Positions 4,900-25,074 are shown, counted from the first letter of the stretch. The stretch: DNA of 64,000 nucleotides from an archaeon (GCA_024276825.1 JAJRWI010000009.1:4902-68901); one strand, 5' to 3'. Numbers and translations: made by a program. Notes: generated by a model from the sequence alone, not told the origin.

Positions 4900-6486
4900 T
4901 TATTGACGTTCGCGATCTAGTTCTTCAGGGGTCAGCTTGTCGCCCTCATCCTCTGCAGCTTCTTCCGCCATGGTTTCAGATGTGTCTTCGTCAATACTTT
5001 GTTCAGAGGTATAAGCAGATGGTTCTTCAGATTTCGGAGCTTTTTCGACCTCTGCTGGTTCACTCACCTTTGGAGTTGTGTCGGTGGGTTCATCGCTAAC
5101 TTCAGGTTCTGGTGAAGGTGTTGGCTCACTAGGGGGCTCTTGCATAGACTCTATTTCTACTGAGAACTTTTTGATCTGATTCTTCCTCGCAATATAAAGT
5201 GCAATTATCACAGCCAGTGATAGAGCAGCTCCGATGAATGTGAGTGTTGTTTGGATCTTGCTTGTTGCACCACCCAAGAGTTGTTGCCAAGTGAGAATAA
5301 GAAACACAAGACCTGCGAGGTTCATTGCAAATCCACGAATGGGGGTTTCAATCTTGGTGATCTCAGTGAGCCCCGCATCAACCATTGCGGCACCAATGAC
5401 GCCTGCGTTATAGTCCTTGAGTTTAGTCTTCTTTGCAATCTTTCTGATTGATAGTGATTTCTTTTTGCCAAGAAGCTTAACTGCCTTGTCTGCCTTTGAA
5501 ACAAGGAAATCAGCATATGCCAGACGAGCACCTGTTTCATCCAACTTGCACTTTTTGCAATAATTGGTCTTCTTATTCCATTTCCTCTTGCATTTCGGAC
5601 ACTTGTCCATGAGCCATGCAGATGGGGCAATCTCACGAATCTTCTGCTTGAGTCGGAACTCAGAAACATCTTCCCTAATGGGTTCTTCAGGCTCACCCTT
5701 CTTTTTCTTTCGCTTTTTCATTTTTGCTTTGAAAAGAACGAGTGAGAATAGTGCAGGTGTTGCTCCTAGCACTGTGAGATTTGGCAACGACTTCAATTCA
5801 GAGGCTTTTTTCTGGATACTTCGAAGTTTATGAGCTGTCTGGAACCCATCAAATAATTGCCAGATACTGCTCCCCATTCCAGTGACTGCACCCACTGTGG
5901 CCACACCGGCACTTATGCCTGCAACCGATGTTATCACTGTGAGAGGATCGGCAGGGATGAGGAGATAGAAGTCCGTGCCTATCTGATAAGTTTCAGTTTC
6001 GCCCTGTATGTGATATGTGAAATTGAGAGTAGCCTTGAATAGACCAGTTGCAATGTCAACACCACTAAGTGAAAGTATCTGGCCAAAGTCAATCAATGCA
6101 GAAACAGGAGGAATGCTGACATTAGCTGGAATAACGACTTCGGATGTATTAGTATTGGGGTCTCGAACTTCCAATGGAAACAGTGCCATGTCCAAGTAGT
6201 AGAACCATATCACACCTTTCATAACAATGGGCTCAGTGTATGTATTGTTTACCTGAAGATATATCTCCATTGGGTTTTCTAAATCCACAGTGATTGGATT
6301 CTCCTCTGTAGCATGTGTGATTGGAGTGCCATCAAGCAGAATTTTAACAGCAAGCTTATCATCATAGACGAACTCATCTGTCCATTGAGCATTGGCGATT
6401 CCAGCCCTCGAAAAGAAAAGTGCGGCTATGAAAAGAACATATGCAAACATAATCATTCGTGACCTTGAATGTTTCATTTTGACCAC
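4900..6486 (-). CDS. Membrane protein: signal peptide, approx. 200-aa extracytoplasmic domain, TM, Lys-rich zinc ribbon, TM hairpin, acidic Pro/Glu tail
   Basis: N-terminal MIMFAYVLFIAALFFSRAGIANA. Cytoplasmic KKRKKKKGEPEE followed by CPKCKRKWNKKTNYCKKCK. C-terminal EPPSEPTPSPEPEVSDEPTD...EEAAEDEGD. Lies directly downstream of the giant membrane-protein gene. Confidence 0.6.
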   Translation of the reverse strand: MVKMKHSRSRMIMFAYVLFIAALFFSRAGIANAQWTDEFVYDDKLAVKILLDGTPITHATEENPITVDLENPMEIYLQVNNTYTEPIVMKGVIWFYYLDMALFPLEVRDPNTNTSEVVIPANVSIPPVSALIDFGQILSLSGVDIATGLFKATLNFTYHIQGETETYQIGTDFYLLIPADPLTVITSVAGISAGVATVGAVTGMGSSIWQLFDGFQTAHKLRSIQKKASELKSLPNLTVLGATPALFSLVLFKAKMKKRKKKKGEPEEPIREDVSEFRLKQKIREIAPSAWLMDKCPKCKRKWNKKTNYCKKCKLDETGARLAYADFLVSKADKAVKLLGKKKSLSIRKIAKKTKLKDYNAGVIGAAMVDAGLTEITKIETPIRGFAMNLAGLVFLILTWQQLLGGATSKIQTTLTFIGAALSLAVIIALYIARKNQIKKFSVEIESMQEPPSEPTPSPEPEVSDEPTDTTPKVSEPAEVEKAPKSEEPSAYTSEQSIDEDTSETMAEEAAEDEGDKLTPEELDRERQ

Positions 6487-6660: not shown

Positions 6661-9600
6661 TTATGTAAATATGAGCATTAAGACAAATATCGAAATTGCG
6701 CCAATTAGAGCTAGCAGTGTGATGAATCGCATGTAGACTAATTGAGGGTGCTGACTCTCCTTGATCTTCAGAAATCTACTTAGAAACAGTAGAGACGCCG
6801 AGAGTGCAAGGAGAAGACTCTGATAGAATACACCGAATATGAAGGTGAATGCAAATCCCGTGATACCAAAGGACATAGGAGCAAGGAAGAGTTGACTGGA
6901 TTCCTTTTTTAGTAATGGATAGAGAAAGATTGCGGCCACGAATACTGCAAAATAGAGAGAGGCCAAGCTCACAAAGAATATGTTTGCTGTCCAGAGATAT
7001 GAAATAGCACCAGAGAACGCTGACAACAGGACCCAAAGAATGGGAATACTGCGTGTTGGCATCCACTCAATTCGTGTCGAGATCATCATTATACATAATG
7101 CAGGATAAAATGCTGCAAATCCGCTCAGGAGCTGAAATTGCAATGTTGGAGCAAAAGGAAGGAGCAGTAGTAAAATAGCAATTCCAGAACTGACTGGCAC
7201 AGGCACCCAAGTGATTGTGATGTATTCTGGACTCAACTCAAGTTCTTGATTGATGATGAGTATTCCGATGAACAGAGAGACCAGAATTGTGAGAAGTGCC
7301 AGATGTGGAAGATTGTGATCTGCCAAAGTCGCCATGAGTGTAATTCCCATACCTAACATTGCTAAGAAGCCACTTGCATAGCCAAAGCGGCTCCTCACCG
7401 TTCTTCGGACAATTGCAATCAAGACAAGAAGTAGTCCAAGGATCATGAGTGGCATGCTGAAGCTTGGAATTGTGTATAACAGACCTTGAGGGTTCATGTT
7501 GACAAAATCACTGAAGAATGGGTAAGAGAGCACACCGAGAGTAATGGAGAAGGCAATTGAGAATATCGCCCACATGAAATAGCCCCATTTCTCGAATAGC
7601 TTTTTCACATACATCATAAACTGCTTGAAGGCCTGAACAATAAGCACACCAAGGTTGAAAAAGTTTCGAGCAATAAAGACGAGTGCAGGAAATATCACTG
7701 GAATCTCCAGAATAAAGAAGACGAACAGACCAGGGAGTAAGGCGTCCGCCAATGTGATTTCAAGAGCTAGTTGGTTAGTTAAGAGTGCCAAGAAGCCAAA
7801 TAATCCCATTATTCCCCAACTGCCTTTGGCAAATCTCCTATACTGCATCGCCCAGCCTAAGAGAGACAGAATTAATGTGGAGGTAGCCAAGTAGGTCAAA
7901 ACATTCGAGAATACAAGCATTTGAGAGATCTCGCCCGAAGGCATCAGAAGTCCAAAGAGCAAAAGAAATGCATCAAACCAAATAGATGGCAAAGTGAACT
8001 TCTTTAGATAGTCAAGCCGTAAGTCTTGGAAATAGAATATTTCTGAAATGATAAAAATGACTGCAGCTCCAAGACCAATTGCAAGTGAAACAACATAATG
8101 ACGGATTGGGATGTTCATAATGGAACTCGGTTGGAAGAGTAAATAGGTGAGAATTCCGCCAACAACCCCAAACATGAATGGAAAAACGATGACGGACCTC
8201 TCAAAGTGTTCATCATACTCATTCTTGATGAAATTGACCAGTCTTATAGCGAGAGGATAGGTTATTGATAGGGCTAAAAGCATCCAAATGATCAGGGTCA
8301 TGAGTATCAATTGATTGATTGGCATTATCAGAAGATTCCTCATATAAAACAGAACAGCAACACCAATCGAACCTACGAGATTGATTACTTTGATGAGGGA
8401 TTTTGGACAATTGTACCAGATTGAGAACAAGACCAAGCCAGCTCCAGCCATGACAATACATCCCACACCAAATGCAACTAGAACATCAGCAGTCAAAAGA
8501 TATGTAATGGCTGAGGAGTAGATGAAAGCACCCAAGACCGCGGGGAACCAAGCGCCATGAACTACGCGATCTTCCATTGGTAGATGGTTTGCTCGTTCAC
8601 CCAAGTAGAATCCAGGTGTTGCAACCAATGAGAATACAATCATGACACTGCCAAAGTATTGAAAAATAGCTATTGATGAATTAACTGCATACATTGTCAA
8701 ATGGGCAGGCAATGAGTAGATCAATGCGAAGACTAATGACACCAGTTCCCATGCTGGTTCAAATTGGAACCACGACACAGGTCGAGTCATTGGCAAGATT
8801 ATTGTGAGTAGTGAGATGAATGTGGCGCCAAGGAGAATATCATTGAGTGGCAGTGTGTAAATGAATACTGAATGCCAGATCCATATTGATTCTAGAAACA
8901 CTATAAACAGGGATGAGGACACAGCTTGAATCATTCCCTGACTGAGTCCATCAAATGGGTTCCAGAGCTCAAACAGCGAATACATAAACAGACCTGTGAT
9001 CAAGACCAGAACCACGCTTTCAAATATGGGATAGATTTGATACCAGAGGATGGATACGAACCCTGAAACTATCAGGCCCAAGATTCGCCAATGAAATCGT
9101 GGATGAGGACCAACCTTTGATCGCACAATTGATATAAAAAGTAAGGGCAAGAGTCCAATTAGAATTGGCACTATTGAATTGGGTGGCATAATCACTGAGA
9201 GATATCGGAACCCAGTGAGGGAGAGGAAGCCACAACCAACCAACGAGATTATCACGGTTATTGTTTCAGAAATATCAGAGCCACCCGAGAAGTAGAGCAC
9301 TATGATGAAAACAAAGATACTCAAGAATATTGAAACCTGAAGGTCAATGAGATTATAGCTGAACATGAAGACAAATAAAGCAGACAGAGCAGAACGAAAG
9401 AGTCCCAGGCCAAATACAAAATCACTCAGATCGAATGGCATATTGGGAGTCTTTCTCAACAGTTCAACGGCCAAGAGTAGTCCAATGGCTGGCGAAGCAA
9501 TAGTGAATGGGTACAGTCCATAGGCCACAAGTATTGCGAGTGAAATTGAGAAGAACATCCAAATCTGATACATGAATCGTCTGCGTGGGATGAATAACAA

Positions 9601-12600
9601 CAGGAAGGACTCTATTGTGAGGTAGATTAAAACAAACAAGAGAAGATTGTATGCTGACGTGTATAGTATTGAGAAAAGGCTCGCTAATGAAAGGCTTGTT
9701 AGTGATATATAACCAACCAACTCTCGTTTCTCTGGTCCTAGATAGAGTAATGCAATCAATGAATAACCAAGGGCAAGCACTAGTGCCTGCGAGATAATAC
9801 TCATTGGTAAAAGGAATACTCCATATGTGATCATTGTTGCTGCAAAGATTGTAATTGAGATATTGCGGACGATAGGCTTTTCTAGAAGGTGAGAGGACAT
9901 GGCTGAAAACATGCCAAATATGATGATTGCAAGTAATGTTGATAGAAATGCATCGGGAATTCGAATCAGGCGGACCAAGAGTATACTGACTAATACATCA
10001 AACATATAGGAAACAATCGTTAGTATAATTCCATATTCTGCTTTGCGGACCACCAGTGATGGAATCCAAAGAATGATGAAGAGCACTACAAAAAAGATAA
10101 AGACATCTAGGTAAGTCTGGAATAATGGGAAGATATGAGGGATGAATATCATTATGACATATAATGAGATGACTCCAGCAAAAATTGCAGAAAAGATGAC
10201 GAGATAGAGGGCAATATACATTGCAGCGATCCGAATTGCAAGAGCGTATTGATGATATACGAGAGGGATGGGAATTAATAGGAGAACAATCAAAATGCCA
10301 GTGATGCCATAACCCAATAGGTAAATCCATAGACTTCCACAGCCTAATGCTATCACAAAATATGTAGCATCGAGCACTCGACCTTTGACAGATGAACGCC
10401 TTAATGGGAGTAGACCAAGGCCAAATATGAGTCCAATTTGGGAGTGTGAAGTAAGATCTGCTGGAAGATAGTTAAAGTAGTAATATGAGAGTGCAAGCAT
10501 CAATACTGAGAGCCAAACTGCTGGAAAGACAAACTTCTGGACAACCTCGGGGTAATGCTGTCTTGTCAATGCAACGAACACAAACACTATGGAAAGCATG
10601 GTTAGAACAGCAAGAATTGGGTTCGTAATATTGAGTAAAGTGACAGCATTCACTGCTATTACAATGGATAGGGCTATCAATATGCTTGAGTATAGGTTGG
10701 GATGTTCACTCCTTCGCCTAAACAGCGCAGGAAACCAGAAACAGAAGGTGATTAGGACAAAGAGAAATGAAGCAGACATCAGAGGATTTGGATATGCTGA
10801 AAACAAAGGCAAGAAGTAATGTGTTAGGTAAGCAGCCAGGACAACTGCAACAACAGCTGCTACAATCACAAGATGGGCAATAGCAACAACAATGAGAAGT
10901 TGAATAATTCGCCTGATAGCACTTGCCAGAAATATTGAGAATCGATAATACAATTCATAGGTGACAGGAAGGGGTAGCAAAAGAGCTGCAAAAAAGGTAA
11001 TCAAGTAATCACCAGTGATCATAAACAGGTACATGACAGCAGAGGGGACCACTGTTAGAAGATAGACAGCGTTTGGAAACTTGGAGGGAACACCGATCGC
11101 ACGAATAGGGAACCAGCCAATACCAAATAGTATTGCTGACAACGAGGCTGCTGTCAAAGCTCCCAGATCAGGTTCTAGTATATAAAAACCCTGAAGTGAG
11201 AGTGTGAGAAGAGCAAATGTCCACGAAGTTGAAAATAATAGGTGTTTAATCGACTCGGAAAATAATCGGTTTCCACCAGCAAGTGTGATTGAAAAAATTG
11301 AAGCACTGATTAGTAGTCTAACAACAATGACAAATTCTGTGAAGAAAAGAAAACCGAATAATGCCATTGAAACAGCCAGTGCAATTATTGAGGTCCTCTT
11401 GATGGACTCTGTGATACTCTCGTTCATTAAGACTGCAGGCAGGAAGAAGAGCAGATATAGTGTTGACAACATTGAGCTGAAGAGCATTGGATCAGAGAGA
11501 AACATCTCTTGAAGGTAGAACCATGTGATTGAGGAGAACACCATAAGAAGTAGAACACCCCAGACTGCAATGTAATGTCTTTTAATGAATTCCATTGAAA
11601 TTATAGCGAATCTGACATAATGCGACCAGAGGAGTGGGGCCAATAGTGTAATGGCAACTGGAACGACAGCAAGAATGAGTCCTGAATATGCCCATGCTAA
11701 ATACGAAACTCCCAAAACACCAAAGACATAAGGACATGAGATGTATTGTTTCCTTAATCCAATTCTCAAGAGTGAGATTGAGAGCAAAAACCATGCTGAT
11801 GCAAGGCCAAGTGAAATTTGAATACTATAATCAAGTGGATAATATGCTGCCCAAAAGGTGAACACTGAATAGGAAGCGAGTGTTGCAAAGACTGAGGGAA
11901 TGACAAGCCGAACTCTGGTTCTAAGAGATTCAATCTGAGCAAGGCCGATAGTTCCAAGGGTTGTAAATATCATACATCCGAGAGCAACAACAAGGAGTAA
12001 GGAATTCTCAAATGTGATCAAGAATGGATACAAGTATAATATTACTAAAAGAGTGAAGACAGTATCACCAATGATACCTGAGATGAGTATATGCGACCGA
12101 ACCCAGTATTTCAATTCCCTGAATACATGAACAATTCTAAGCCATAGTAATTTCCATAATCTACGGATACTTCGAAATAGACCCGAGAGACCAGCTATGA
12201 AGAGTAAGATTGAGTAAGACACCGAATGGACTAGTTGCCATGCAAAATATTGGGTCCAGACAAAAAGTACCGAGCACCCGAAGATTAGGGCGGATAGCCC
12301 AATTACTCTCACATAGATGGATTCTTTCTCTCGATTTATAACGAATGCAAACCGTAAGAAGACAGGAGCAGGAGCGAGAATAAGAGCAGAGAAAAGCAAG
12401 GCCAAGGGGAGCATTAATATCATGAAGGAGGGTGATATGATCCAGCCTGTCCTTGAAGCCATCCAAAGAAATAGGAATGGTTCTCCAATAGCAATAAAGA
12501 CCATTGCAATACTTGACAGAGCATGACCATCATAGGGGTCAATCAACCATGGAATCTTAACATCCACTTCTCCCTCAGATTCTTGCTCAGTTAATGATTC

Positions 12601-13419
12601 GGAATCATCAATCTCAATGCCCATCATGGTCATTATGTGGATTTGTTTCTCTGACTTCTTCTTTATCCTCTCCTTTCGTGTGAATAGGTATAGTTGCATT
12701 CGTCGAAAGATTTGAGACATAGCTAGAAGGCCGATTCCAGAGCCCGTCAAGAATAGAGAGGACAAAATAAGTAAATCAATTGTAGGACCAGAGAGCGATA
12801 CAATCTCGATTGAAAGTATCCCAATTGAGAATGAGAGGATGAATGCTGACACAATGCCAAGTCTTGGTTTTCTGATAAAATATTGATAAATCTGAATATA
12901 GACATATAACACAACTAGGGCAATAATCAATGACCATGTGAAAAGTCCTGTGAAGAAGTTCACTGTCAAGAATGATGCTAGGGGAGCAGTCACTAAGATG
13001 ATTGCAGAAAATAGTTTTCCAATCAGTCCCCATCTAGCGCGTGATATCTCTCCCCGTCTAAACAGATTAAACAGAATCACAAGTGATAATAGGGAGAATG
13101 TATGAAAGCAAGCGACTGTTGCGTGTATTGCAGCCCAGCCTATACTCAGAGAAACAGCTGCAGACACATTGCTTATCATCAGCAGTGTTGTTCCTAATCT
13201 GTTCCGCTTCACCAAAAGCAGAAGGAATCCGCCCACTGCAACTCCCACAGCAGCTGACATCAATATTCGAACAACCGCATCTGGGATCACTGGTTCAAGT
13301 ACAAAGTATACCATTGATAGAATTGCAACAGGCAGAATGAGTCCAAATACAACAATAGCAGCAAATGAATAGAGATAGTCTGCCCATTTCTTGACCCTAA
13401 GCGTGCTATCGGCGGTCAT
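6661..13419 (-). CDS. Giant (2252 aa) polytopic integral membrane protein of unknown function
   Basis: Single uninterrupted ORF of 6.76 kb. Almost the whole sequence is hydrophobic helix-length segments separated by short R/K-containing loops (by eye 50 or more TM segments). The only obvious soluble stretch is an acidic loop (IEIDDSESLTEQESEGEVD, ORF residues ~273-291). No recognisable catalytic motif. Confidence 0.7.
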   Translation of the reverse strand: MTADSTLRVKKWADYLYSFAAIVVFGLILPVAILSMVYFVLEPVIPDAVVRILMSAAVGVAVGGFLLLLVKRNRLGTTLLMISNVSAAVSLSIGWAAIHATVACFHTFSLLSLVILFNLFRRGEISRARWGLIGKLFSAIILVTAPLASFLTVNFFTGLFTWSLIIALVVLYVYIQIYQYFIRKPRLGIVSAFILSFSIGILSIEIVSLSGPTIDLLILSSLFLTGSGIGLLAMSQIFRRMQLYLFTRKERIKKKSEKQIHIMTMMGIEIDDSESLTEQESEGEVDVKIPWLIDPYDGHALSSIAMVFIAIGEPFLFLWMASRTGWIISPSFMILMLPLALLFSALILAPAPVFLRFAFVINREKESIYVRVIGLSALIFGCSVLFVWTQYFAWQLVHSVSYSILLFIAGLSGLFRSIRRLWKLLWLRIVHVFRELKYWVRSHILISGIIGDTVFTLLVILYLYPFLITFENSLLLVVALGCMIFTTLGTIGLAQIESLRTRVRLVIPSVFATLASYSVFTFWAAYYPLDYSIQISLGLASAWFLLSISLLRIGLRKQYISCPYVFGVLGVSYLAWAYSGLILAVVPVAITLLAPLLWSHYVRFAIISMEFIKRHYIAVWGVLLLMVFSSITWFYLQEMFLSDPMLFSSMLSTLYLLFFLPAVLMNESITESIKRTSIIALAVSMALFGFLFFTEFVIVVRLLISASIFSITLAGGNRLFSESIKHLLFSTSWTFALLTLSLQGFYILEPDLGALTAASLSAILFGIGWFPIRAIGVPSKFPNAVYLLTVVPSAVMYLFMITGDYLITFFAALLLPLPVTYELYYRFSIFLASAIRRIIQLLIVVAIAHLVIVAAVVAVVLAAYLTHYFLPLFSAYPNPLMSASFLFVLITFCFWFPALFRRRSEHPNLYSSILIALSIVIAVNAVTLLNITNPILAVLTMLSIVFVFVALTRQHYPEVVQKFVFPAVWLSVLMLALSYYYFNYLPADLTSHSQIGLIFGLGLLPLRRSSVKGRVLDATYFVIALGCGSLWIYLLGYGITGILIVLLLIPIPLVYHQYALAIRIAAMYIALYLVIFSAIFAGVISLYVIMIFIPHIFPLFQTYLDVFIFFVVLFIILWIPSLVVRKAEYGIILTIVSYMFDVLVSILLVRLIRIPDAFLSTLLAIIIFGMFSAMSSHLLEKPIVRNISITIFAATMITYGVFLLPMSIISQALVLALGYSLIALLYLGPEKRELVGYISLTSLSLASLFSILYTSAYNLLLFVLIYLTIESFLLLFIPRRRFMYQIWMFFSISLAILVAYGLYPFTIASPAIGLLLAVELLRKTPNMPFDLSDFVFGLGLFRSALSALFVFMFSYNLIDLQVSIFLSIFVFIIVLYFSGGSDISETITVIISLVGCGFLSLTGFRYLSVIMPPNSIVPILIGLLPLLFISIVRSKVGPHPRFHWRILGLIVSGFVSILWYQIYPIFESVVLVLITGLFMYSLFELWNPFDGLSQGMIQAVSSSLFIVFLESIWIWHSVFIYTLPLNDILLGATFISLLTIILPMTRPVSWFQFEPAWELVSLVFALIYSLPAHLTMYAVNSSIAIFQYFGSVMIVFSLVATPGFYLGERANHLPMEDRVVHGAWFPAVLGAFIYSSAITYLLTADVLVAFGVGCIVMAGAGLVLFSIWYNCPKSLIKVINLVGSIGVAVLFYMRNLLIMPINQLILMTLIIWMLLALSITYPLAIRLVNFIKNEYDEHFERSVIVFPFMFGVVGGILTYLLFQPSSIMNIPIRHYVVSLAIGLGAAVIFIISEIFYFQDLRLDYLKKFTLPSIWFDAFLLLFGLLMPSGEISQMLVFSNVLTYLATSTLILSLLGWAMQYRRFAKGSWGIMGLFGFLALLTNQLALEITLADALLPGLFVFFILEIPVIFPALVFIARNFFNLGVLIVQAFKQFMMYVKKLFEKWGYFMWAIFSIAFSITLGVLSYPFFSDFVNMNPQGLLYTIPSFSMPLMILGLLLVLIAIVRRTVRSRFGYASGFLAMLGMGITLMATLADHNLPHLALLTILVSLFIGILIINQELELSPEYITITWVPVPVSSGIAILLLLLPFAPTLQFQLLSGFAAFYPALCIMMISTRIEWMPTRSIPILWVLLSAFSGAISYLWTANIFFVSLASLYFAVFVAAIFLYPLLKKESSQLFLAPMSFGITGFAFTFIFGVFYQSLLLALSASLLFLSRFLKIKESQHPQLVYMRFITLLALIGAISIFVLMLIFT

Positions 13420-13707
13420 GATAATTCGTTCCTAAAGTACCTCTTAACCTACGAGCGGTTATCCCCATGAACCTTTGAAACTATAGTCATTTAATATTTA
13501 CTGGAACAGCAGCGATTGAGCGGTAATTTCCATTAAATTTCATTTTAAGTGGTCATTCAATCATGATGTTTCAACATACAGGAGAATAATTCATTTCGAG
13601 CCACATTATTGATTGAATAATTGAATTGAGTCAGCAGTTTATGGATTATGTAAAAATGCGCAGTCCTTTTATGATTTAAAGCACCCTAGAAAGATGAGGA
13701 CACGCCA

Positions 13708-14217
13708 TTGCCAGAGAAAATAGAATGTAGGTATTGTGGGAGAATTTATTCAGAAGGCCAGACTGTCTGCACGAATTGTGGTGCGAGTCTTGCTGATGGA
13801 TTTCGAAGACTCACATGTGATAAATGTGGAAGGCCAGTGCCTGATGGAACAGACCCCGTGGGCAAATGTGTCACCTGTGGCAAAGAGGTCTATCTCTGTG
13901 ACAAACATTTCAAGAGACTAAAGGATGATGAGGTCTTCTGTAATGAGCATGAGTCAGAGTGCTTTATCGCCACTGCTGTCTTTGGGACACCACTGGATCC
14001 ACATCTCGACATTCTGAGGGAGTTCAGGGACAAATGGCTTCTGACCACGCCCATTGGTAGGGTTGCTGTTTTTACATACTATGAGATTTCACCACCAATT
14101 GCAAGGAAAACGAGAAAAAGCCCCATTTTAAAGAAGATATTCAGGACAATATTAGTAGAACCTGGCCTAGGTCTTGCACGCATTGTACTTGGAAAGGACT
14201 CCGATGAAGGCATCTGA
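13708..14217 (+). CDS. Zinc-ribbon protein with conserved CFIATAVFG...LREFRDKWLL C-terminal module
   Basis: Two CxxC...CxxC ribbons (CRYCGR...CTNCG; CDKCGR...CVTCGK). These are followed by ECFIATAVFGTPLDPHLDILREFRDKWLLTTPIGRVAVFTYYEISPPIA, which resembles a widespread C-terminal module (CFI-box-like, recalled from memory). Confidence 0.55.
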   Translation: MPEKIECRYCGRIYSEGQTVCTNCGASLADGFRRLTCDKCGRPVPDGTDPVGKCVTCGKEVYLCDKHFKRLKDDEVFCNEHESECFIATAVFGTPLDPHLDILREFRDKWLLTTPIGRVAVFTYYEISPPIARKTRKSPILKKIFRTILVEPGLGLARIVLGKDSDEGI

Positions 14218-14230
14218 TCAAGGTTGAAGA

Positions 14231-15121
14231 TTGATGAGAGTAAGAATCGGCGACACAGTGATTCCATATCCTATCAATCGAATTGTGGGCCATCTTCGAC
14301 TGGTGGGACTATCATACAATGATTGCTTCAGATTGACCCAGCCACTATATAATAATGCCCGGATTTTTGAGCTATCCGAACTATTGGAATATTTGAATAA
14401 AGAAATATTCAATATATCGGAAGAAGCGGCGGAGTCGTTTGAATTGATAAACAGGTATCAGGGTCTCAGGAGGTCGAAGAGGGGCGTGCCGCCAATCATC
14501 ATAGTCCTTGAAGGAGCTTCTGCAACGGGCAAGTCATTGCTGAGTATCTCCGTCATATCAAATCTGGGTCTAGCCAGAATAATCAGTACAGACAGCGTCC
14601 GACAGATATTACGATCCGTCATCAGCAAGGATGAGCACCCAGAATTGTTCTGTCATACTTATCAGGCCCACAAGTACAGAATGAGCGGCAACCCCAGATT
14701 GAGCGAGTCAGTGAGGGGATTTCTCGCACAGGTGGACTTGATGAGGTCTGCATTGGAAAGTGCCGTGCAATTACTCATCAGTGAGGGTGCTGATGGAATG
14801 ATAGAGGGAGTCCATATTGTGCCAGGGTCATTCTCAAGGCTTGAGAAGAGTGTTCTTGAAATCTTGATACATCCCAGTGCTGAGATGCACAAAATGATGT
14901 TCATTTCAAAGAGCAAGGCTGCAGCATTGAAGTCAGTCAGTAATGATGAACAGATCAGAAGAGTCGAGTTCAAAGCGACGCGTGAGATACAGGACTACAT
15001 GTATGAGCAGGCAACGAAGAACGGGGTCCCAATAATCCAACTAGAGGATTATGAGAGTGCAGAGAATGAGCTTAATGCACTCATTCTCCGCAGAGTCCGA
15101 GAACTTGTGAGCGAGTTTTAG
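14231..15121 (+). CDS. 2-phosphoglycerate kinase family P-loop ATPase
   Basis: N-terminal ATP-cone-like MMRVRIGDTVIPYPINRIVGHL, a Walker A in IIIVLEGASATGKSLLS, and LGLARIISTDSVRQILRSV, which matches the 2PGK family pattern. Lies 14 nt downstream of the zinc-ribbon gene. Confidence 0.6.
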   Translation: MMRVRIGDTVIPYPINRIVGHLRLVGLSYNDCFRLTQPLYNNARIFELSELLEYLNKEIFNISEEAAESFELINRYQGLRRSKRGVPPIIIVLEGASATGKSLLSISVISNLGLARIISTDSVRQILRSVISKDEHPELFCHTYQAHKYRMSGNPRLSESVRGFLAQVDLMRSALESAVQLLISEGADGMIEGVHIVPGSFSRLEKSVLEILIHPSAEMHKMMFISKSKAAALKSVSNDEQIRRVEFKATREIQDYMYEQATKNGVPIIQLEDYESAENELNALILRRVRELVSEF

Positions 15122-16623
15122 GGTATTAATGTGAAGGCGCCGTTTATTGCAAGTTCCATGATTATGCTGGGATTAAGAAATAGAATCACAGTCAGGGCAG
15201 CACAGATGATGACCGCCAGTGTTGGAATTCGGGGCAGTGTGATTCTTGACTCATCAGAGGGGTCTTCAAAGTAAGTGACCTTTAGCACTCGTAGGTAATA
15301 ACCCAGAGAGAACACCGAGTTGATAAGTCCAATCAATGCAAGCCACCACATACCAACTTCCACAGCGCTTTGGAATACGTACCACTTGGCCCAGAGACCC
15401 ACAGTGAACGGGATTCCAGCCAGAGATATCATGAATATGACTAGCATTCCCGCAGCTAATGGAGACCGTCTGCTCAATCCAGACAGATCTGCATAAGTGA
15501 TTTCTTTTGCAAGTCTGAGTGAGAGAATCCATATGAGAATGAATGCTCCGGCCTTTGTAATGGCATGTGCAAATGCATAGAACAGTGCTGCTGAGGCACC
15601 AAAGGAATTGGTTGCGGTAGTCGAGGCGATTCCGATGAACAGGTAGCCCATCTGGGCAATGGATGAAAATGCCAACATCTTGGTGATCGTTATCTTTGGA
15701 TCAAGTGCCAGTACATTGCCAATAATCATGGTTGCAACTGATACTATCACAATAAGCATGCTCCACTCAAAGCGTGCAACAAGGAACCCTACAAGGAGGA
15801 TTCGCATGAGGGCACTTATACCAGTCTTCTTGGTAGCGCCGGCCAAATACGAAACGACATTGCCATCGGAATTGCAATATGTGTCAGGGACCCATTGCCA
15901 GCCAGGGAATATACCAACTTTGAAGCCAAAGGCAATCACAAAAAGGATTAAGGCAAGAATCAGGGGGTATGCTGCTTCGCCAATTGGGGTTGTAGACCAG
16001 ATTGTGTTGGCTGCGGCAGCGATAACAGGAATTGATGTGGTCCCTATCACACCATAGACTATTGCAATGCCAAAGGCGAGAAGCATGCTAGAGAGCAGAC
16101 CAATAACCAAGTACTTTACAGCACCGTCAATAGACCCTCTGAATGGACCAAGCGCGACAAGCACGTAAGTTGGTGTGGACATCAACTCCCATGCCATGAA
16201 AAGGGCGACGAGATCATTTGCCATTACAACCCACATGGCTCCCGCGAAAGATATCAGAAATAGTGCGTTATAGATCCCTTTTGAGCCGCCATAACTTGTG
16301 GCAGAGAGCAAGACAATGAAGGCAACAAACAGGATGATATAGATGAAGAAGTCTGTGAAGGCATTTCTGATGAACAGACCACCAAATGAATTGGTTGGTG
16401 CGAGAATTATCATCTCGAGCCCTGAGAGAATCACGCCTATGAAACTGATGGGCAGGGGGTTCCAGCGGAGACCCACCATCAGGGCCAATAATGCAAATAC
16501 TATCAAGGTTATTGCCGGAAGCGAACCAATCCAGTCGCTTGGAACATAGGTTGTCATAAGATCTCTTATTGGACTTGCGATGAGTTCGAACAGTTGTAGT
16601 AGTGGGTCAAATATCTGGAACAT
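15118..16623 (-). CDS. nuoN: Complex I antiporter-like subunit N
   Basis: 14 TM, Mrp/NuoN-type. Motif GWQWVPDTYCNSDGNVVSYLAGATKKTGISALMRILL. Last gene of the tightly packed operon; its start overlaps the nuoM stop. Confidence 0.8.
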   Translation of the reverse strand: MFQIFDPLLQLFELIASPIRDLMTTYVPSDWIGSLPAITLIVFALLALMVGLRWNPLPISFIGVILSGLEMIILAPTNSFGGLFIRNAFTDFFIYIILFVAFIVLLSATSYGGSKGIYNALFLISFAGAMWVVMANDLVALFMAWELMSTPTYVLVALGPFRGSIDGAVKYLVIGLLSSMLLAFGIAIVYGVIGTTSIPVIAAAANTIWSTTPIGEAAYPLILALILFVIAFGFKVGIFPGWQWVPDTYCNSDGNVVSYLAGATKKTGISALMRILLVGFLVARFEWSMLIVIVSVATMIIGNVLALDPKITITKMLAFSSIAQMGYLFIGIASTTATNSFGASAALFYAFAHAITKAGAFILIWILSLRLAKEITYADLSGLSRRSPLAAGMLVIFMISLAGIPFTVGLWAKWYVFQSAVEVGMWWLALIGLINSVFSLGYYLRVLKVTYFEDPSDESRITLPRIPTLAVIICAALTVILFLNPSIIMELAINGAFTLIP

Positions 16624-18116
16624 TATGGAATCACCCCTAGCATGTTATCAACAGCTGGTGCTATTAGGTTCAATATCAAGTCAGGCCACACACCCAACAG
16701 AATGACGGGAATCATCATCAGAACAGGAGCAATTAGGTCACTCCAACTGGCCTCTTTAACTCCACTCTCAGGATCTGGCTCGCTAAAGACAATCCTGTTA
16801 AGAGTCCATAACAGATAGCCGACAGTTATGAAAATGCCAAATGCTATCAGCCCTGATAATGGATAGATCATTACTGCGCCAAAGATAATGAGCAACTCGG
16901 CAATAAAGCCACTAAAGCCCGGTAGTCCGAAAGCAGCAAATGATGCAAGGATAAGCAGGACCGACATTCTTGGGGCTTGCTTCAGGAGACCCTTGACCTT
17001 GGGGATCTCGCGAGTGCCAGCAGAATATTTCAACTGTCCTGCCATGATGAACATCACAGAGATGATTGTTCCATGGGAGAACATCATGAATACTGCACCC
17101 TGAATTGCCAGACTTGTTCCCACTGCCACTCCAAGTAAGACCCAAGACATGTGATTGATTGAGGTATAGGCGACCATACTCTTGAGATCAGTCTGGGCCA
17201 TTGCGGTGAATGCCGCATAAATGCATGTAAAGATGGCAAGAATTACGAATGGAATGCTGAGTCTTGCAAATGCATCAGGCACAAGCCAGACACCAAGACG
17301 GATGAAGGCGTATCCGCCCATCTTCAGCAGAATGCCAGCAAGAATTACAGACCCTGGAGTCGGCGCCTTTACATGAGCCCAAGGAAGCCAAGTGTGCATC
17401 GGAAACACAGGGAGTTTCACTCCAGCGCCCATAAACACCGCAAGAACATAGCCCATCTGCACCATCGATGGAAGACTCATGTCGCGGAGGGCTAACATAT
17501 TGAAGGTATGACCTCCGAAGAAGAAGATCACAAAAAAGCCCACAAGCATGATTGCTGAGCCAAAGTGTGTGAAGATAAAGAACTTGATGGCCGCATGTTT
17601 GCAACCCTCCTCACCCCATTTGCCAATTATGAAGAACATGGGGATTAAGACCAGTTCCCACATAACAAAGAATCCCACAAGGTCGATGGACATGAAGACT
17701 CCAAGCAGGCCGGTCTGCATGAACATGAATAATGAATAGTAAAGGCTCTGTGACTTGTTGATGTGGTTCGAGCTGATGGCTGCAATGAGAGTGACGATGT
17801 TGGACAATAGAATCATCACAACCGAGATACCATCAACTCCCAATGCGAGTTGCATGTTGGCCCAATCACCAGATACATAGATTCTGCCAAATGTGTAGGC
17901 CCATAGAAATGTCATGTCTGAGGAGGGATCAATACCAAGTGCCAGTAAAACTGCAAGTCCGAGTTCGAACAACGAAATTACCAGTGTGATTGCTCTTGCT
18001 GCCCGAGAACCGGTCAATAGAGATAGGAAAGCACCAATCAATGGCGCAAGCAGCATCAATGGCAGTATTGGTAGTGGCAAGCTCTGAAGTATCTGTAAGG
18101 CAAAGTCCAACTGCAA
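16623..18116 (-). CDS. nuoM: Complex I antiporter-like subunit M
   Basis: HTWLPWAHVKAPTPGSVILAGILLKMGGYAFIRL, an M-type signature. Abuts nuoL. Confidence 0.8.
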   Translation of the reverse strand: MQLDFALQILQSLPLPILPLMLLAPLIGAFLSLLTGSRAARAITLVISLFELGLAVLLALGIDPSSDMTFLWAYTFGRIYVSGDWANMQLALGVDGISVVMILLSNIVTLIAAISSNHINKSQSLYYSLFMFMQTGLLGVFMSIDLVGFFVMWELVLIPMFFIIGKWGEEGCKHAAIKFFIFTHFGSAIMLVGFFVIFFFGGHTFNMLALRDMSLPSMVQMGYVLAVFMGAGVKLPVFPMHTWLPWAHVKAPTPGSVILAGILLKMGGYAFIRLGVWLVPDAFARLSIPFVILAIFTCIYAAFTAMAQTDLKSMVAYTSINHMSWVLLGVAVGTSLAIQGAVFMMFSHGTIISVMFIMAGQLKYSAGTREIPKVKGLLKQAPRMSVLLILASFAAFGLPGFSGFIAELLIIFGAVMIYPLSGLIAFGIFITVGYLLWTLNRIVFSEPDPESGVKEASWSDLIAPVLMMIPVILLGVWPDLILNLIAPAVDNMLGVIP

Positions 18117-20303
18117 TCACAGCACCCCCATTATGACAAGAAGGATGATTATCATCACTCCAAGTCCAAAGATTATCATTGCAACATAATCGTTGATACG
18201 TCCCGTCTGCACAGTCATTCCCGTTCTGGATGCCTGCACACTCTGAGTGGCCACACCCTCAGCAAAGCCATCGATGACATGATCATCGAACCATCTAATC
18301 TTTCTCGACATCGTCTGTGCCAGTCTTGATGAACCAAAGTCAATGCCATCTATTATTCGATTGTCAATCTTTACACGCCACCACTCGACAAACCTCAAGA
18401 ACTTGTAAAGTACCCAGTAATAGAACTCGTTGATATACCAGCGATGTTTCAAAAAGCTGTAGACTCTTCTTCGGACTCCTCTTTCGGGAATGAGTGCATT
18501 GTTCTTACCTTCACCCTTGATGTAAATCATATATGCAGGAATGCCGCCCAGCGCCAATGCAGCCAGAGTGGCTCCAAAGGGTATCAGGCCAGGCATGGTG
18601 ATCTTGACTATAATCATTTCCATGAGAATCTCATCCCATGGAGTATCTGCAGCCAAGACAATGTTCTGAATTATCGGGTAAATGAGAAACGCGATTAGTG
18701 TGAATCCAGCAAGAATGTACAGTGGAATCATCATTGCAGGGCCCGGATCATGAGGCGAATTATGCGCCTCTTTATCTTGCATTTCATGATGCTCTTCTTC
18801 ATGGCCATAGAACACGATACCCATTAGTCTGATACTATAGAATATTGTGCACATAGCAGCCAAGACTGCAAGTATGAACAAGACCATTCCAAGCTGATTC
18901 AGAAACACACCTGCCTCAGAGGCCACTGCAAGCTCATATGTGTATTCGATGATTGAGTCTTTTGACCAGAACCCTGAGAATGGAGGAATTCCAGCAAGTG
19001 CTGCAACTCCAATCCACATCACCGCCAGGGTTCTTGGCATGTACTTCTTGAGACCACCCATTTTTGTCATGTACTTGGTATGAACCGCATGAATTACTCC
19101 GCCTGCTGCAAGGAATAGGAGAGCCTTGAAGGCACCATGACTGATGACATGAAGAACAGAAGAGAGATAGGCGGCTTCCCCAGCATGGAGGAGATGTTCA
19201 TTGGCCCCAATCAAAAGACCGCCAACGCCAATCGCCAACATCATGTAGCCCAGCTGACTTAGAGTAGAGAATGCCAGAACCTGCTTCATTTCGTTTGATG
19301 TCATACCCATGGTTGCTGTCATGAATGCAGTAATGGCACCAATGACAGCAATAACGAGGAAGAATGTCTGTGCACTGCCGAGCGAGATTAGAGAGGATTG
19401 AATATGTCCTGCAGCTTCCACAAGAGTGATGAGAAATCTGGCGCTTATGTATACTCCGGCCTTGACCATGGTGGCAGCATGAATTAGGGCAGAAACAGCA
19501 GTTGGACCTGCCATGGCCTCAGGCAGCCAAACCTGCAGTGGTGCCTGTCCGGACTTTCCAATCGCACCCATGAATATCAGCAGGAAGGTCGGTATCAGCA
19601 TTCCAGCCCCAACCATTGCTACAAACCATTCACCACTCTCAGCCATTTCAGTGAACATGAATGTTCCAGTGAAGAGAAATAGGAGAAGTATTCCCCCTAG
19701 CATAAAGGCGTCACCAATTCTTGTGACTATGAATGCCTTTGTGCCACAGTGTGTATTGTATTGACCCTCAGTCTTATAGTTCAGCAATGGATTGCTCTGA
19801 GGATAACCTGTGGGATCTTCTTCAGGAGGATTTCGTTTGTCGTTCCAGAAGCCAATCAGTCCATAGGAACAGAACCCCATTATCTCCCAGCCAATGAACC
19901 CGATCAATAGGTTGTTGCTCAATACAAGTGTCAGCATTCCGCCTCCGAAGGCAAGCATCAGGAAGAAGAATCGATCTTTGTCCTCTTCATGTGCCATATA
20001 TTCGGTACTGTAGACATAAATGAGGAAGCAGAGCGTGCTGGCCAGAACAGCCATAATAACCGACAGGGGATCCAATAAGACACCAAACTCAAGATGCAAT
20101 GAGGGAATCCACATCCAAGTTGTCTGTGTCTGAGGATTGTTGATCTCAAGGAGTAGCGACCAGCACAAGATCATAGTGATCCCCATCAGAATTGCGGGAG
20201 TCCAGTCTCTTAATTTCTGACTGAGCCTTCCAATCAGGGGGACGAATAATGAACCAGCAAGGGGAATCACAAGAATGATGTAATAGGGTAATCCGAACAG
20301 CAT
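18117..20303 (-). CDS. nuoL: Complex I antiporter-like subunit L (with long C-terminal lateral helix region)
   Basis: VWLPEAMAGPTAVSALIHAATMVKAGVY is the L-type signature. 728 aa with a C-terminal extension and a terminal TM. Confidence 0.85.
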   Translation of the reverse strand: MLFGLPYYIILVIPLAGSLFVPLIGRLSQKLRDWTPAILMGITMILCWSLLLEINNPQTQTTWMWIPSLHLEFGVLLDPLSVIMAVLASTLCFLIYVYSTEYMAHEEDKDRFFFLMLAFGGGMLTLVLSNNLLIGFIGWEIMGFCSYGLIGFWNDKRNPPEEDPTGYPQSNPLLNYKTEGQYNTHCGTKAFIVTRIGDAFMLGGILLLFLFTGTFMFTEMAESGEWFVAMVGAGMLIPTFLLIFMGAIGKSGQAPLQVWLPEAMAGPTAVSALIHAATMVKAGVYISARFLITLVEAAGHIQSSLISLGSAQTFFLVIAVIGAITAFMTATMGMTSNEMKQVLAFSTLSQLGYMMLAIGVGGLLIGANEHLLHAGEAAYLSSVLHVISHGAFKALLFLAAGGVIHAVHTKYMTKMGGLKKYMPRTLAVMWIGVAALAGIPPFSGFWSKDSIIEYTYELAVASEAGVFLNQLGMVLFILAVLAAMCTIFYSIRLMGIVFYGHEEEHHEMQDKEAHNSPHDPGPAMMIPLYILAGFTLIAFLIYPIIQNIVLAADTPWDEILMEMIIVKITMPGLIPFGATLAALALGGIPAYMIYIKGEGKNNALIPERGVRRRVYSFLKHRWYINEFYYWVLYKFLRFVEWWRVKIDNRIIDGIDFGSSRLAQTMSRKIRWFDDHVIDGFAEGVATQSVQASRTGMTVQTGRINDYVAMIIFGLGVMIIILLVIMGVL

Positions 20304-20313
20304 CTGTCACACC

Positions 20314-21843
20314 TCACGGAGTCGGAATGATATTAATCAGGTGACTGACTGCAGGCATAATCACATCCACAGCAAGCCCTGGGAATATTCCAAATAGCAC
20401 AATCAGCACGCCCAGTAGTATCTGGGGAATGATCATTGAGCGTGGACCCTCTTTGACATCTTCCAGCTCATCAGGATGAGGCCCGAGAAAGACCTTCCAG
20501 AGAAACCGCAGCATGTAGCCAGCACTAATGATTGAGCTCGAAACAGCAAAGATTGTCAGTATCAGAAAATTGAATGATCCAGTAGCATAATAGACTTGGA
20601 AGCCACCCAGAAACATCAACCATTCACTAGCAAAGCCTGAGAGGGGTGGGCTGCCTGCAATGCTCATGGCTCCGACTGCAGCCATAAATGCGGTGATTGG
20701 CATCTTATTGGAGAGACCGCCCATCTTATTGATATCTCTCAGACCTGTCTGATGGATAACTGTTCCAGCAGTCATGAACAACAGACCTTTTGAGAAGGCA
20801 TGATTAATCAGATGAAACATGCCTCCAGTCACGCCAAATGTGGAAAATGTGCCAAGGGCAAAGAGCACATAGCCCATTTGCGAAACTGATGAGTAAGCGA
20901 GCAGTCTCTTGATGTCCACTTGAACCAGTGCCATGAAGCCACCATAGAACATTGTGATGACGCCAATAGAACTGATGAAGAAAGCGAGGTCTCTGGCTGC
21001 TGAAAAGAGCATGATGTTTCCGAAGCGCATTAGAGCATAGGCACCGGTTTCAATCATTGCACCTGACAAGAGAACAGATATTGGAGTTGGAGCTTCAGCG
21101 TGAACGGGAGGTAGCCACCAATGGATTGGGAATACCGCCATCTTGACGAGAAACCCTGCAGCGAGTAAGATGAATATCACCTTGAGCATTCCAGAAGCAA
21201 TCAGTTCGCCAACAGCAGGCCCTCCAGCTATCAGAAATGCCTGAATGTCATTCAATACAAACATTCCTGTCACCATGTAGGTCAGTCCAAGGCCAACGAT
21301 TATGCAGACAGCTCCAGCCTGTGTGTAAAGCCAGAACTTCAGAGCTGTCCGCTGACGAGTTTCGGGTAGGCCCCAGAATAGTATCAGGAAATAGCTTGGG
21401 ACCAACATCAGCTCCCAGGCGATGAAGAACTCTACGATGTTAGTTGCAAGAGTGACCCATTGCATGCCCATTAGAAAGAACAGTTGATTTGCAAAGAAGG
21501 TCGACCTGTTCTCCATATGTTTCGTATAGCCGATAGCATAGACAACTGACAGGAATCCAAGGAATACTACAGCGAAAGTAATGGGAAATGCGACACCATC
21601 AAGAAACAGGCCAAATGAGCCCAAAACCGATGACCACTCGATAGACTCAAGGGCCACACCATTCTCGACCATCACACGATAGAACGGCGGTATCATGAGC
21701 AGCAAAGCAACAAAGGAGATTGCCGAGGCAACTTTTCCCGCATAGTTTTCAAATCGATCACCGTTCAGATATATCAACAGGCCGCCAAAGAACAGCACCA
21801 CGAGGGATGCTGTCATGAATGGAAATTCTACTATCTGCATCAT
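20314..21843 (-). CDS. Additional NuoM-like antiporter subunit (fourth antiporter-like subunit)
   Basis: FPIHWWLPPVHAEAPTPISVLLSGAMIETGAYALMRFG, an M-type motif. Sits between nuoI and nuoL. Its start overlaps the nuoI stop (ATGA). Confidence 0.75.
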   Translation of the reverse strand: MMQIVEFPFMTASLVVLFFGGLLIYLNGDRFENYAGKVASAISFVALLLMIPPFYRVMVENGVALESIEWSSVLGSFGLFLDGVAFPITFAVVFLGFLSVVYAIGYTKHMENRSTFFANQLFFLMGMQWVTLATNIVEFFIAWELMLVPSYFLILFWGLPETRQRTALKFWLYTQAGAVCIIVGLGLTYMVTGMFVLNDIQAFLIAGGPAVGELIASGMLKVIFILLAAGFLVKMAVFPIHWWLPPVHAEAPTPISVLLSGAMIETGAYALMRFGNIMLFSAARDLAFFISSIGVITMFYGGFMALVQVDIKRLLAYSSVSQMGYVLFALGTFSTFGVTGGMFHLINHAFSKGLLFMTAGTVIHQTGLRDINKMGGLSNKMPITAFMAAVGAMSIAGSPPLSGFASEWLMFLGGFQVYYATGSFNFLILTIFAVSSSIISAGYMLRFLWKVFLGPHPDELEDVKEGPRSMIIPQILLGVLIVLFGIFPGLAVDVIMPAVSHLINIIPTP

Positions 21844-22271
21844 CTGAATCTACTCCCTCGCCATTCTAGAGGATCCCTGTCTAGGGTTTCTATTCTTTCT
21901 GGATCGTAATGCAATCGCTCGCGTTCTGGCTCGCTCAGATCAACCACTTTAGTATGGAACAAGGCATTAAACCGACATGCTTGAACACAGAGGCCACAGA
22001 ATATGCATCGAGTATAGTCAAAATACAAGGCTGCATCCTTCTCATATTTGCGGTCAGACTTGTCAATTCTGATGGCCACGACAGGGCAGGCCCGCACACA
22101 TTGTGCGCATGCAGTACATTTCTCTCTAATGTGTATATGTCGGCCTCGTGTACGTTCAGGATGCTCCCGGTCCTCGTAGGGATAGAGCACCGTAAATGGT
22201 CGCTCAAAGACCTGACTGAACACATGTTTTAAGATTGTGAATATTTCTCCGAGAGTTGAAAAGAACCCCAT
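21840..22271 (-). CDS. nuoI: Complex I subunit I (2x[4Fe-4S] ferredoxin-like)
   Basis: CTACAQCVRACP and CIFCGLCVQACR cluster motifs. 143 aa. Confidence 0.85.
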   Translation of the reverse strand: MGFFSTLGEIFTILKHVFSQVFERPFTVLYPYEDREHPERTRGRHIHIREKCTACAQCVRACPVVAIRIDKSDRKYEKDAALYFDYTRCIFCGLCVQACRFNALFHTKVVDLSEPERERLHYDPERIETLDRDPLEWRGSRFR

Positions 22272-22275
22272 TTGC

Positions 22276-23415: not shown

Positions 23416-23425
23416 TCTTATCCTC

Positions 23426-24562: not shown

Positions 24563-25074
24563 TATTCATTCGCCTCCTTTGGTGGGCGTGGCTTGGGCTG
24601 CGGAAGTCCAGACTCTGCCAATCGACTGCGGTCAGTCATAAAGCTCTTTCTCATGGGATATCTTCCTACAAGTTCATCAGGAAGCAATAGAGGTCTGAGA
24701 TCGGGATGTCCCTTGAACTTGATACCGAACATCTCATGGGTCTCGCGCTCATGCCATTCAAGTCCAGCAATAATATCACTCACAGTATCAATCTCTGGGG
24801 GCTCGCCCTCAAGTAGAACCCGCACTTGAACCAGCAGTCTTTTGTTTCGCGACCAGAAGATGTAGATCATCTCATACTGATTGTTCCTTAGATCCACACC
24901 GAAGCACGATTCAGGAAACAGATCATTGATGTACTCGTCTAAGAATCTGATTACATCACGTATCTTCTCCGGAGCTGCTTTGATGTCCAGTCTGTCAATT
25001 GATGGCACTACTTCAATATCAGGCATCTTGTTGACCAGTTCCCGAGCCAGAGTCATTGCCTCACCATCACTCAT
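24562..25074 (-). CDS. nuoC: Complex I subunit C (30 kDa)
   Basis: EWHERETHEMFGIKFKGHPDLRPLLLPDE is the NuoC signature. The ORF is open to 25113, but Met codons at 25074 or 25056 are the more likely starts given the nuoK stop at 25067. Confidence 0.75.
   Translation of the reverse strand: MSDGEAMTLARELVNKMPDIEVVPSIDRLDIKAAPEKIRDVIRFLDEYINDLFPESCFGVDLRNNQYEMIYIFWSRNKRLLVQVRVLLEGEPPEIDTVSDIIAGLEWHERETHEMFGIKFKGHPDLRPLLLPDELVGRYPMRKSFMTDRSRLAESGLPQPKPRPPKEANE

Follow-up and report, generated by a model that had tools for sequence, protein, structure and literature searches.

A giant membrane protein of Thorarchaeota with three tandem eight-helix modules and a genetically linked zinc-ribbon partner

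Can a single archaeal gene encode a protein of more than two thousand residues that consists almost entirely of transmembrane (TM) helices, and what might such a protein do? The question is raised by a 64,000-nucleotide stretch of DNA from a member of the Thorarchaeota (Asgard archaea; GCA_024276825.1, JAJRWI010000009.1:4902-68901), referred to here as the window, in which an uninterrupted open reading frame (ORF) starts with an ATG codon and runs on the minus strand (6661..13419) through 2252 codons to a stop codon. A preliminary description of this DNA had taken the ORF for one genuine, giant polytopic membrane protein and had considered an internally repeated array of transporters, glycosyltransferases or flippases, or a structural scaffold. 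The analysis reported here firmly shows that the gene is genuine, lineage-restricted and selectively maintained and that it encodes a single-chain membrane protein, in which three homologous 8-TM modules are flanked by unique and conserved TM regions at the N-terminus, in the centre and at the C-terminus. The gene and its parts are the following (window coordinates).

6661..13419, minus strand: gene of the giant membrane protein, 2252 residues plus stop, with an estimated ~70 TM helices (ORF and translation, hydropathy, orthologues of 2033-2447 residues).
12709..13419, minus strand: N-terminal region, residues 1-237, with about eight hydrophobic helices, the N-terminus predicted inside and an invariant membrane-embedded H106 (positive-inside reading, conservation).
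12526..12708, minus strand: the sole soluble loop, residues 238-298, basic and then acidic (~269-290), with a conserved W291-x-I-D-P (sequence, hydropathy, alignment, conservation).
11560..12177, minus strand: segment of residues ~415-620, starting with a highly conserved R/W-rich amphipathic helix (alignment; three tandem copies in the relative P0106, see below).
10978..11658, minus strand: repeat unit B, residues 588-814, an 8-TM module (iterative hidden Markov model (HMM) search with decoys, hhalign probability 100%, AlphaFold predicted local distance difference test (pLDDT) score ~84).
10282..10989, minus strand: repeat unit C, residues 811-1046, an extra copy found only in the subgroup of 2241-2295 residues (HMM, hhalign, alignment, AlphaFold).
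9622..10290, minus strand: repeat unit D, residues 1044-1266 (HMM, hhalign; E 1e-29 against the unit profile).
7723..9621, minus strand: central non-repeat TM region, residues 1267-1899, with conserved membrane-embedded E1270, E1319, R1342 and E1510 (conservation in 19 sequences; AlphaFold all-helical, at low confidence).
6664..7722, minus strand: C-terminal region, residues 1900-2252, the best-conserved part, with the motifs FDRFGYxMW, PFFSELxNMP, IVRRxVKSRFG and VTGFAFTF (conservation).

The reality of the gene is established by its relatives. Full-length orthologues of 2033-2447 residues occur in about 20 Thorarchaeota-type genomes, and existing source annotations call members of the family 'hypothetical protein' or 'membrane protein of unknown function'. 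Seven clusters of 2080-2295 residues, 26-45% identical and named Candidatus Thorarchaeota, came out of a word-indexed search among 5.8 billion proteins. Searches of this kind become saturated with hydrophobic words, and further members were obtained from an exhaustive search and a genome scan. The former, in which HMMER compared a profile of residues 1060-2252 with 1.84 billion representative proteins, retrieved 37 proteins, all of them members or fragments of the giant family, and nothing outside it. The latter took one genome for each GTDB species and turned up 19 loci, without exception in Thorarchaeota-type metagenome-assembled genomes (MAGs), one labelled Promethearchaeota and one Hermodarchaeota; here the tblastn matches span residue ~1 to ~2250 wherever the contig permits. 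An alignment of 19 full-length sequences (24-45% identity to the query) shows conservation in at least 17 of them at 131 positions; these positions, many of which are P, G, W, Y or F and none of which is Cys, are spread along the entire protein, and the start Met is conserved in 17 of the 19. Judging from the frequency of stop codons, 2252 stop-free codons cannot be a matter of chance in DNA of ~43% GC. The view of the ORF as one genuine giant protein is thus borne out, its reading frame being backed by protein conservation over the full length, and a break into several ordinary transporter genes, the observation named in the preliminary description as speaking against it, was encountered in no genome examined. 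In this analysis the family was seen only in Thorarchaeota-type genomes. A side observation concerns the MAG HM4_26_B25, two contigs of which (L012 and L013) carry two different partial giant genes corresponding to query residues ~700-2252 at ~29% identity; these may be paralogues or stem from mixed strains in the bin.

Leucine (17.1%), isoleucine (11.3%), phenylalanine (8.9%) and valine (8.1%) together make up 45% of the protein, Asp, Glu, Lys and Arg account for 9.2%, and the grand average of hydropathy (GRAVY) is +1.16, in agreement with the first impression of an ORF made nearly entirely of TM helices. The only sizeable hydrophilic stretch, residues ~238-298 (~60 residues), is predicted to be cytoplasmic. 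It opens with a basic run, RKERIKKKSEKQ, and continues with an acidic run at ~269-290, which is the acidic soluble stretch that had been noticed at the outset. Lys and Arg residues at positions 8-11 place the N-terminus inside on a positive-inside reading, and no extracellular domain of any size was found in the sequence. Family-averaged hydropathy resolves ~70 hydrophobic segments separated by minima, while the secondary structure of AlphaFold models comprises 18-20 helices in residues 588-1046 (units B and C) and 44 in residues 1060-2252. From these helix counts combined with the hydropathy segmentation we estimate a total of about 70 TM helices, with a range of 65-80, which keeps the early claim of very many helices and raises its figure of '50 or more', now seen as too low. 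To our knowledge, the 38 TM helices of Piezo are the largest count in any solved structure; if the prediction holds, the giant protein would have by far the most TM helices in one polypeptide known to us, and how the archaeal Sec/YidC machinery inserts and folds about 70 helices would become a direct question.

Profile-profile comparison, applied to 150-residue windows of the protein, revealed a block repeated in tandem every ~223-236 residues across residues ~450-1200, at probabilities of up to 99.7%. Iterative HMM searching, controlled with reversed and block-shuffled sequences as decoys, fixed three units, B (588-814), C (811-1046) and D (1044-1266). Unit C entered the model at E-values of 1e-18 to 1e-27 and unit D at 1e-7 to 1e-15, with the best decoy at 1.5-4.2 bits across iterations; the three repeats reached E-values of 1e-21 to 1e-39, against 0.0015-0.04 for the best decoy, and hhalign probabilities of 100, 100 and 99.8%, respectively. 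Residues 588-1266, about 30% of the protein, accordingly consist of three tandem modules of ~229 residues. A putative fourth unit at ~1900-2140, suggested by hhalign (61%) and a loose HMM iteration, was rejected together with weak matches elsewhere. With the deeper alignment of 19 sequences, the profile of 47 units and reversed decoys, these matches were lost, at E-values of 5.7e-4 to 2.5e-3 compared with 0.0015 for the best decoy, and because they fell to the decoy level only units B, C and D were accepted. No repetition outside residues 588-1266 could be demonstrated by this approach. The internal repetition surmised in the preliminary description, for which repeat detection had been suggested and has now been run, therefore applies to the three modules, whereas the remainder of the protein is not demonstrably repetitive. 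Eight helices can likewise be counted in the N-terminal 237 residues, so that the protein may conceivably have a fully modular origin.

According to the 47-unit profile, each unit has eight hydrophobic segments, with K/R-rich loops after segments 1, 3, 5 and 7, and the remaining loops are uncharged and only 2-6 residues long. Because the K/R-rich loops alternate with neutral ones, the positive-inside rule predicts that each unit is an 8-TM module that the chain enters and leaves on the same, outer side of the membrane, which is what a tandem repeat of constant orientation requires. The units share the motifs LLxPxPxxYxxY in TM1, WxPALxxRRxE after TM3, (F/Y)(S/P)E after TM5 and GxGxxPLR in TM7. 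Only P, Y, W, G and R are conserved in the repeat consensus, a single Pro and a single Tyr alone reaching 80%, and no candidate set of catalytic residues was found in the 47-unit profile. A 4+4 substructure resembling that of the Piezo THU was considered and discarded, the two halves of the unit being unrelated to each other. The number of modules varies: most relatives carry two units (B and D), and unit C is an extra copy in the subgroup of 2241-2295 residues, which includes the query, explaining the alignment gap at query positions 800-1050. In addition, in P0106 (2447 residues; ENA/JGI contigs of up to 14.9 kb) the segment equivalent to query residues ~415-620 is present in three tandem copies. 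This triplication, which makes it a second kind of TM block to have been amplified, and the variation in unit copies show that blocks of ~200-230 residues have been duplicated repeatedly within the family.

Outside the repeats, conservation is highest in the C-terminal ~350 residues, whose four motifs served as search patterns. The amphipathic R/W-rich stretch FRSIRRLWKLLWLRIVHVFRELKYW (residues 414-441) is likewise conserved in the 19-sequence alignment, and conserved charged residues lie inside hydrophobic segments at H106, E1270, E1319, R1342, E1510 and R2231. None of these features led to a known family. Pfam returned zero families for the query, and zero for any of seven members at E<=5; NCBIfam and PADLOC gave zero matches, the latter lending no support to membership in a defence system, and a family profile compared with all PDB chain sequences had 0 matches at E<=1. 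No segment matches the Pfam or NCBIfam models of known transporter superfamilies (MFS, ABC-2, RND, DMT, Mrp/Proton_antipo_M and others), and literature searches yielded nothing relevant on a giant Thorarchaeota or Asgard membrane protein. The preliminary description was thus right in recognising no catalytic or transporter motif, and clear homology to a known multi-domain transporter family, which it had named as a possible refutation, was searched for and not found; the array of transporters, glycosyltransferases or flippases that it had entertained matches no known family or fold and is abandoned.

Predicted structure gives a similar picture. An AlphaFold2 model of units B and C (residues 588-1046, 21 alignment rows) has a mean pLDDT of 83.7 (at least 70 for 425 of the 459 residues) and a predicted template modelling score (pTM) of 0.51, a combination suggesting that the single units are well defined and their mutual placement less certain. 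A Foldseek search of this model against the PDB found nothing at E <= 0.001, the best E-value being 0.54 and the TM-scores at most 0.19. Its weak top matches are a mixture of G-protein-coupled receptors, TPR/14-3-3 and designed repeat proteins, which we read as generic helix packing and not as a fold assignment. Soluble alpha-solenoids and designed repeats of this kind resemble the giant protein in their variable copy number, but the matches are not significant (E >= 0.5, TM-score <= 0.2) and the giant protein is embedded in the membrane. For residues 1060-2252, modelled from six sequences, pLDDT was 48.5 and pTM 0.34, and this model was used for helix counting alone and not for a fold search. 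If the prediction holds, the giant protein represents a membrane fold and architecture without relative in the sequence and structure databases searched, for which the confident two-module model can be used in the design of experiments.

The conserved neighbour of the giant gene lies on the other side of the divergent upstream region.

13708..14217, plus strand: 169-residue protein with zinc ribbons and a CFI-box, divergent from and upstream of the giant gene (Pfam Zn_Ribbon_1, NCBIfam NF041770, orthologues).
13420..13707, no strand assigned: AT-rich divergent intergenic region of 288 bp between the two genes (sequence comparison).

In the 169-residue protein, two zinc ribbons of the CxxC type are accompanied by a CxxH...CxxH site, and residues 85-150 form a CFI-box-CTERM domain. 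It matches Pfam PF13240 (Zn_Ribbon_1) with 28.7 bits (cutoff 25) and NCBIfam NF041770 (CFI-box-CTERM) with an E-value of 1.8e-25 and 88.6 bits (cutoff 40) over positions 1-66 of the 69 in the model. Among its orthologues, which are 55-73% identical and thus conserved far better than the giant protein, C7/C10/C21/C24, C37/C40/C54/C57 and C64/H67/C78/H81 are invariant, and the invariant string ECFIATAV.GT..P..D.LR..RD.WL is present in the five that were aligned. These residues have the pattern of zinc ribbons, with predicted metal sites. Neither a signal peptide nor a TM helix was detected, and the protein is predicted to be cytosolic. It shares the domain of CFI-box-CTERM proteins, but here the domain follows zinc ribbons of a cytosolic type and there is no signal peptide; no paper in the searched literature mentions the CFI-box. 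The family comprises about 60 near-full-length clusters, every named one from Thorarchaeota. More distant matches to its profile, from other lineages (Dehalococcoidia being named for one), differ in architecture and size, and neither of the two that were checked adjoins a giant membrane gene, so the idea of a general pairing of CFI-box proteins with giant membrane proteins was dropped.

The divergent pair is present at all the individual loci examined and, in the GTDB set, at 11 of the 11 loci in which the 5' end of the giant gene is on the contig, with the genes 190-330 bp apart, and the eight GTDB loci without the 169-residue gene are cut by contig ends. No conserved operator or promoter motif was found in the divergent intergenic regions between the genomes compared. 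In the most distant member of the family, P0124 (1753 residues; locus L029 of GCA_053940065.1, 32.6% GC), a 50%-identical homologue of the small protein is encoded directly downstream of the giant gene, on the same strand and after a gap of 13 bp. A linkage that survives such a rearrangement of gene order is good evidence for a functional connection between the two genes.

What, then, could the giant protein do? We tentatively favour, with rather less than even confidence, the view that it serves as a scaffold in the plane of the membrane, a 'transmembrane solenoid', and docks the 169-residue partner, predicted to be cytosolic. We infer an architectural role because the repeats are devoid of catalytic signatures, gain and loss of modules is tolerated and structural residues dominate the conserved positions; tolerance of copy number is, as we see it, typical of structural repeat proteins. 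Under this proposal the giant protein would be neither an enzyme nor a classical carrier, and its helices would form a ribbon laid in the plane of the membrane, which, if the bundles were in line, might comprise ~9-10 bundles and measure a few tens of nm. The cytoplasmic face, bearing the R/W-rich amphipathic helices and the one basic-acidic loop, would dock the zinc-ribbon/CFI-box partner, and how large the assembly becomes would be set by the duplicated modules, serving as spacers. Several observations weigh against the scaffold. The C-terminal half is poorly modelled (pLDDT 48.5), the placement of the modules relative to one another is uncertain (pTM 0.51) and the ribbon geometry is presumed. 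The buried conserved charges and the C-terminal peak of conservation would each suit the core of a channel or transporter as well as a scaffold. Moreover, the partner does not strictly need the giant gene, since the complete 3.16-Mb Thorarchaeota genome CP070761.1 has the former and no giant gene at the syntenic site: its OB-fold Ssb-like and 169-residue genes lie 110 bp apart (L008 9381-10504) where others hold the ~6.3-kb giant gene. A more specific version of the idea, in which a curved blade or ribbon together with the 169-residue adaptor shapes or senses membrane curvature, or gates a pore in response to it, seems doubtful to us; if true, it would make the protein an Asgard-archaeal convergent analogue of the giant machines with which eukaryotes shape membranes and sense mechanical force.

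The main rival to the scaffold is the core of a channel or transporter. In this reading, to be taken seriously if on balance unlikely, the giant protein would be a channel or would translocate ions, following a Piezo-like logic: the C-terminal ~350 residues and the central region would conduct ions or sense the membrane, and the peripheral repeated 8-TM modules would form a lever or curvature-sensing arm of variable length. Like Piezo of eukaryotes, the giant protein is a single polypeptide of more than 2000 residues (2000-2450 residues in the family, near Piezo's size class), has repeated TM bundles in series and is best conserved C-terminally. The varying number of bundles in the family, the membrane-embedded E1270, E1319, R1342, E1510 and H106 and the conserved Arg/Lys-rich amphipathic helix at residues 414-441 would also be in keeping with a channel. 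However, neither the Pfam search of the seven members at E<=5 nor the PDB profile search at E<=1 detected Piezo or any other channel family, and no likeness in fold was detected. The giant protein has about twice as many helices as Piezo, its module comprises eight TMs and not four as in the THU, without an internal 4+4 duplication, it is almost free of soluble domains, with cap, beam and anchor all absent, and it is confined to Thorarchaeota-type genomes; in addition, its buried charges are sparse for a protein of about 70 helices. Piezo is the closest analogy in design, and every testable feature of membership in its family failed. The membrane arm of complex I and the Mrp antiporters offer a second comparison, being likewise long in-plane arrays of homologous TM modules with few buried charges. 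The subunits of these arrays are separate proteins of 14 TMs, each with an inverted repeat of the 5+5 kind and conserved chains of Lys and Glu, whereas the giant protein has no similarity to Proton_antipo_M, and the complex-I-like operon that lies nearby (see below) reflects synteny that is kept where the giant gene is absent.

It is improbable, in our estimate, that the protein is a membrane-embedded lipid or glycan enzyme or translocase, such as a flippase, polymerase, GT-C-like enzyme or scramblase. Such enzymes are found among very hydrophobic polytopic proteins with few loops, and the conserved cytoplasmic R/W-rich interfacial helix could touch lipid head groups. GT-C enzymes carry an acidic DxD/ExD-type motif in an extracytoplasmic loop, but the predicted outside loops of the giant protein, at 2-10 residues and without conserved acidic positions, are too short for one. 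No match to GT-C, O-antigen polymerase-ligase type, Wzy, MurJ, MprF or related families was obtained, and a varying number of modules would be unusual in an enzyme. A machine resembling an exosortase or archaeosortase that sorts or processes the CFI-box 'CTERM' domain of the neighbour is very improbable. The name that NCBI gives to that domain, the strict gene linkage and the fact that exosortases are proteins of about eight TMs are in its favour, but no Exosortase Pfam or other profile match was found, the ten Cys residues of the giant protein are not conserved and a Cys-Arg-His triad cannot be assembled. Furthermore, the 169-residue partner has neither a signal peptide nor a terminal TM helix and persists where the giant gene is absent, and the CFI-box proteins checked in other taxa do not adjoin giant membrane genes. 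That the ORF is an artefact, either several ordinary transporter genes that a faulty assembly or a frameshift has joined or a hydrophobic ORF without function, is hardly conceivable even though the window derives from a MAG, because independent assemblies from many samples contain collinear full-length ORFs of similar size that are conserved end to end from the start Met, and no segment matches a transporter family.

Whichever of these readings is correct, the presence and absence of the gene among genomes and its strictly linked small partner provide a tractable genetic and biochemical handle. In the Asgard setting, membrane organisation bears on ideas of the origin of the eukaryotic cell. 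Even as a lineage-specific structural filler, the protein would define a family of its own and, with its 8-TM unit, a repeat module not described before.

The other neighbours of the giant gene are listed below.

4900..6486, minus strand: 528-residue membrane protein, downstream of the giant gene and on the same strand (ORF, sequence features).
14231..15121, plus strand: 296-residue P-loop protein (GASATGKS) resembling 2-phosphoglycerate kinase (2PGK), at 127.7 bits compared with 343 and thus far below equivalog cutoffs.
15118-25113, minus strand: complex-I-like/Mrp-like operon with four Proton_antipo_M subunits (501, 497, 728 and 509 residues).

The 528-residue protein exists as the preliminary description had it, with a signal-like N-terminus, an extracytoplasmic N-domain, TM segments, a Lys-rich region, a CPKC...CKKC zinc ribbon and an acidic tail. 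The proposed joint action with the giant protein did not hold up, as the gene also occurs where the giant gene is absent from the locus: it adjoins the giant gene only in the window and in the closest relative, other giant loci carry a CorA or OB-fold gene in its place, and CP070761.1 holds a 60%-identical orthologue in the same synteny. The 528-residue protein is itself a conserved Thorarchaeota protein, whose gene is always followed by one for a pyridine-nucleotide disulphide oxidoreductase. The 2PGK-like gene follows the 169-residue gene at most Thorarchaeota loci, including where the giant gene is absent, so its link to the latter is weak. The complex-I-like operon, which also holds genes for a 2x[4Fe-4S] subunit and for NuoH-like, NuoD-like and NuoC-like proteins, adjoins the 169-residue gene in several Thorarchaeota genomes, one of which lacks the giant gene at this locus. 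In CP070761.1 the 169-residue gene lies between the OB-fold Ssb-like and 2PGK-like genes, with the oxidoreductase gene and the complex-I-like operon in the same synteny. A functional link of the operon, the 2PGK-like gene or the 528-residue protein to the giant gene was therefore rejected, and the neighbours in the window reflect conserved gene order and not a dedicated system, because they are retained in CP070761.1, where the giant gene is absent from this locus.

Some further genes were seen in passing. An Arf/Ras-family small GTPase gene lies just past the 169-residue locus of CP070761.1 (L008 11537-12070), and the locus L029 of GCA_053940065.1, an AT-rich archaeal MAG, also encodes a lamin-tail-domain (LTD) protein and a protein with FHA and STAND-NTPase domains. 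Elsewhere in the window, two giant hydrophilic ORFs of 1942 and 2437 residues lie on the minus strand at 50517-56345 and 56589-63902, respectively. Both are rich in Thr, Tyr and Asp, begin with a signal-like segment at the N-terminus and have a stalk rich in Thr, and at the C-terminus a TM anchor precedes basic residues; their sole Pfam match is DUF7743 in the ORF of 2437 residues, and they look like tandem giant surface proteins of an S-layer or adhesin type.

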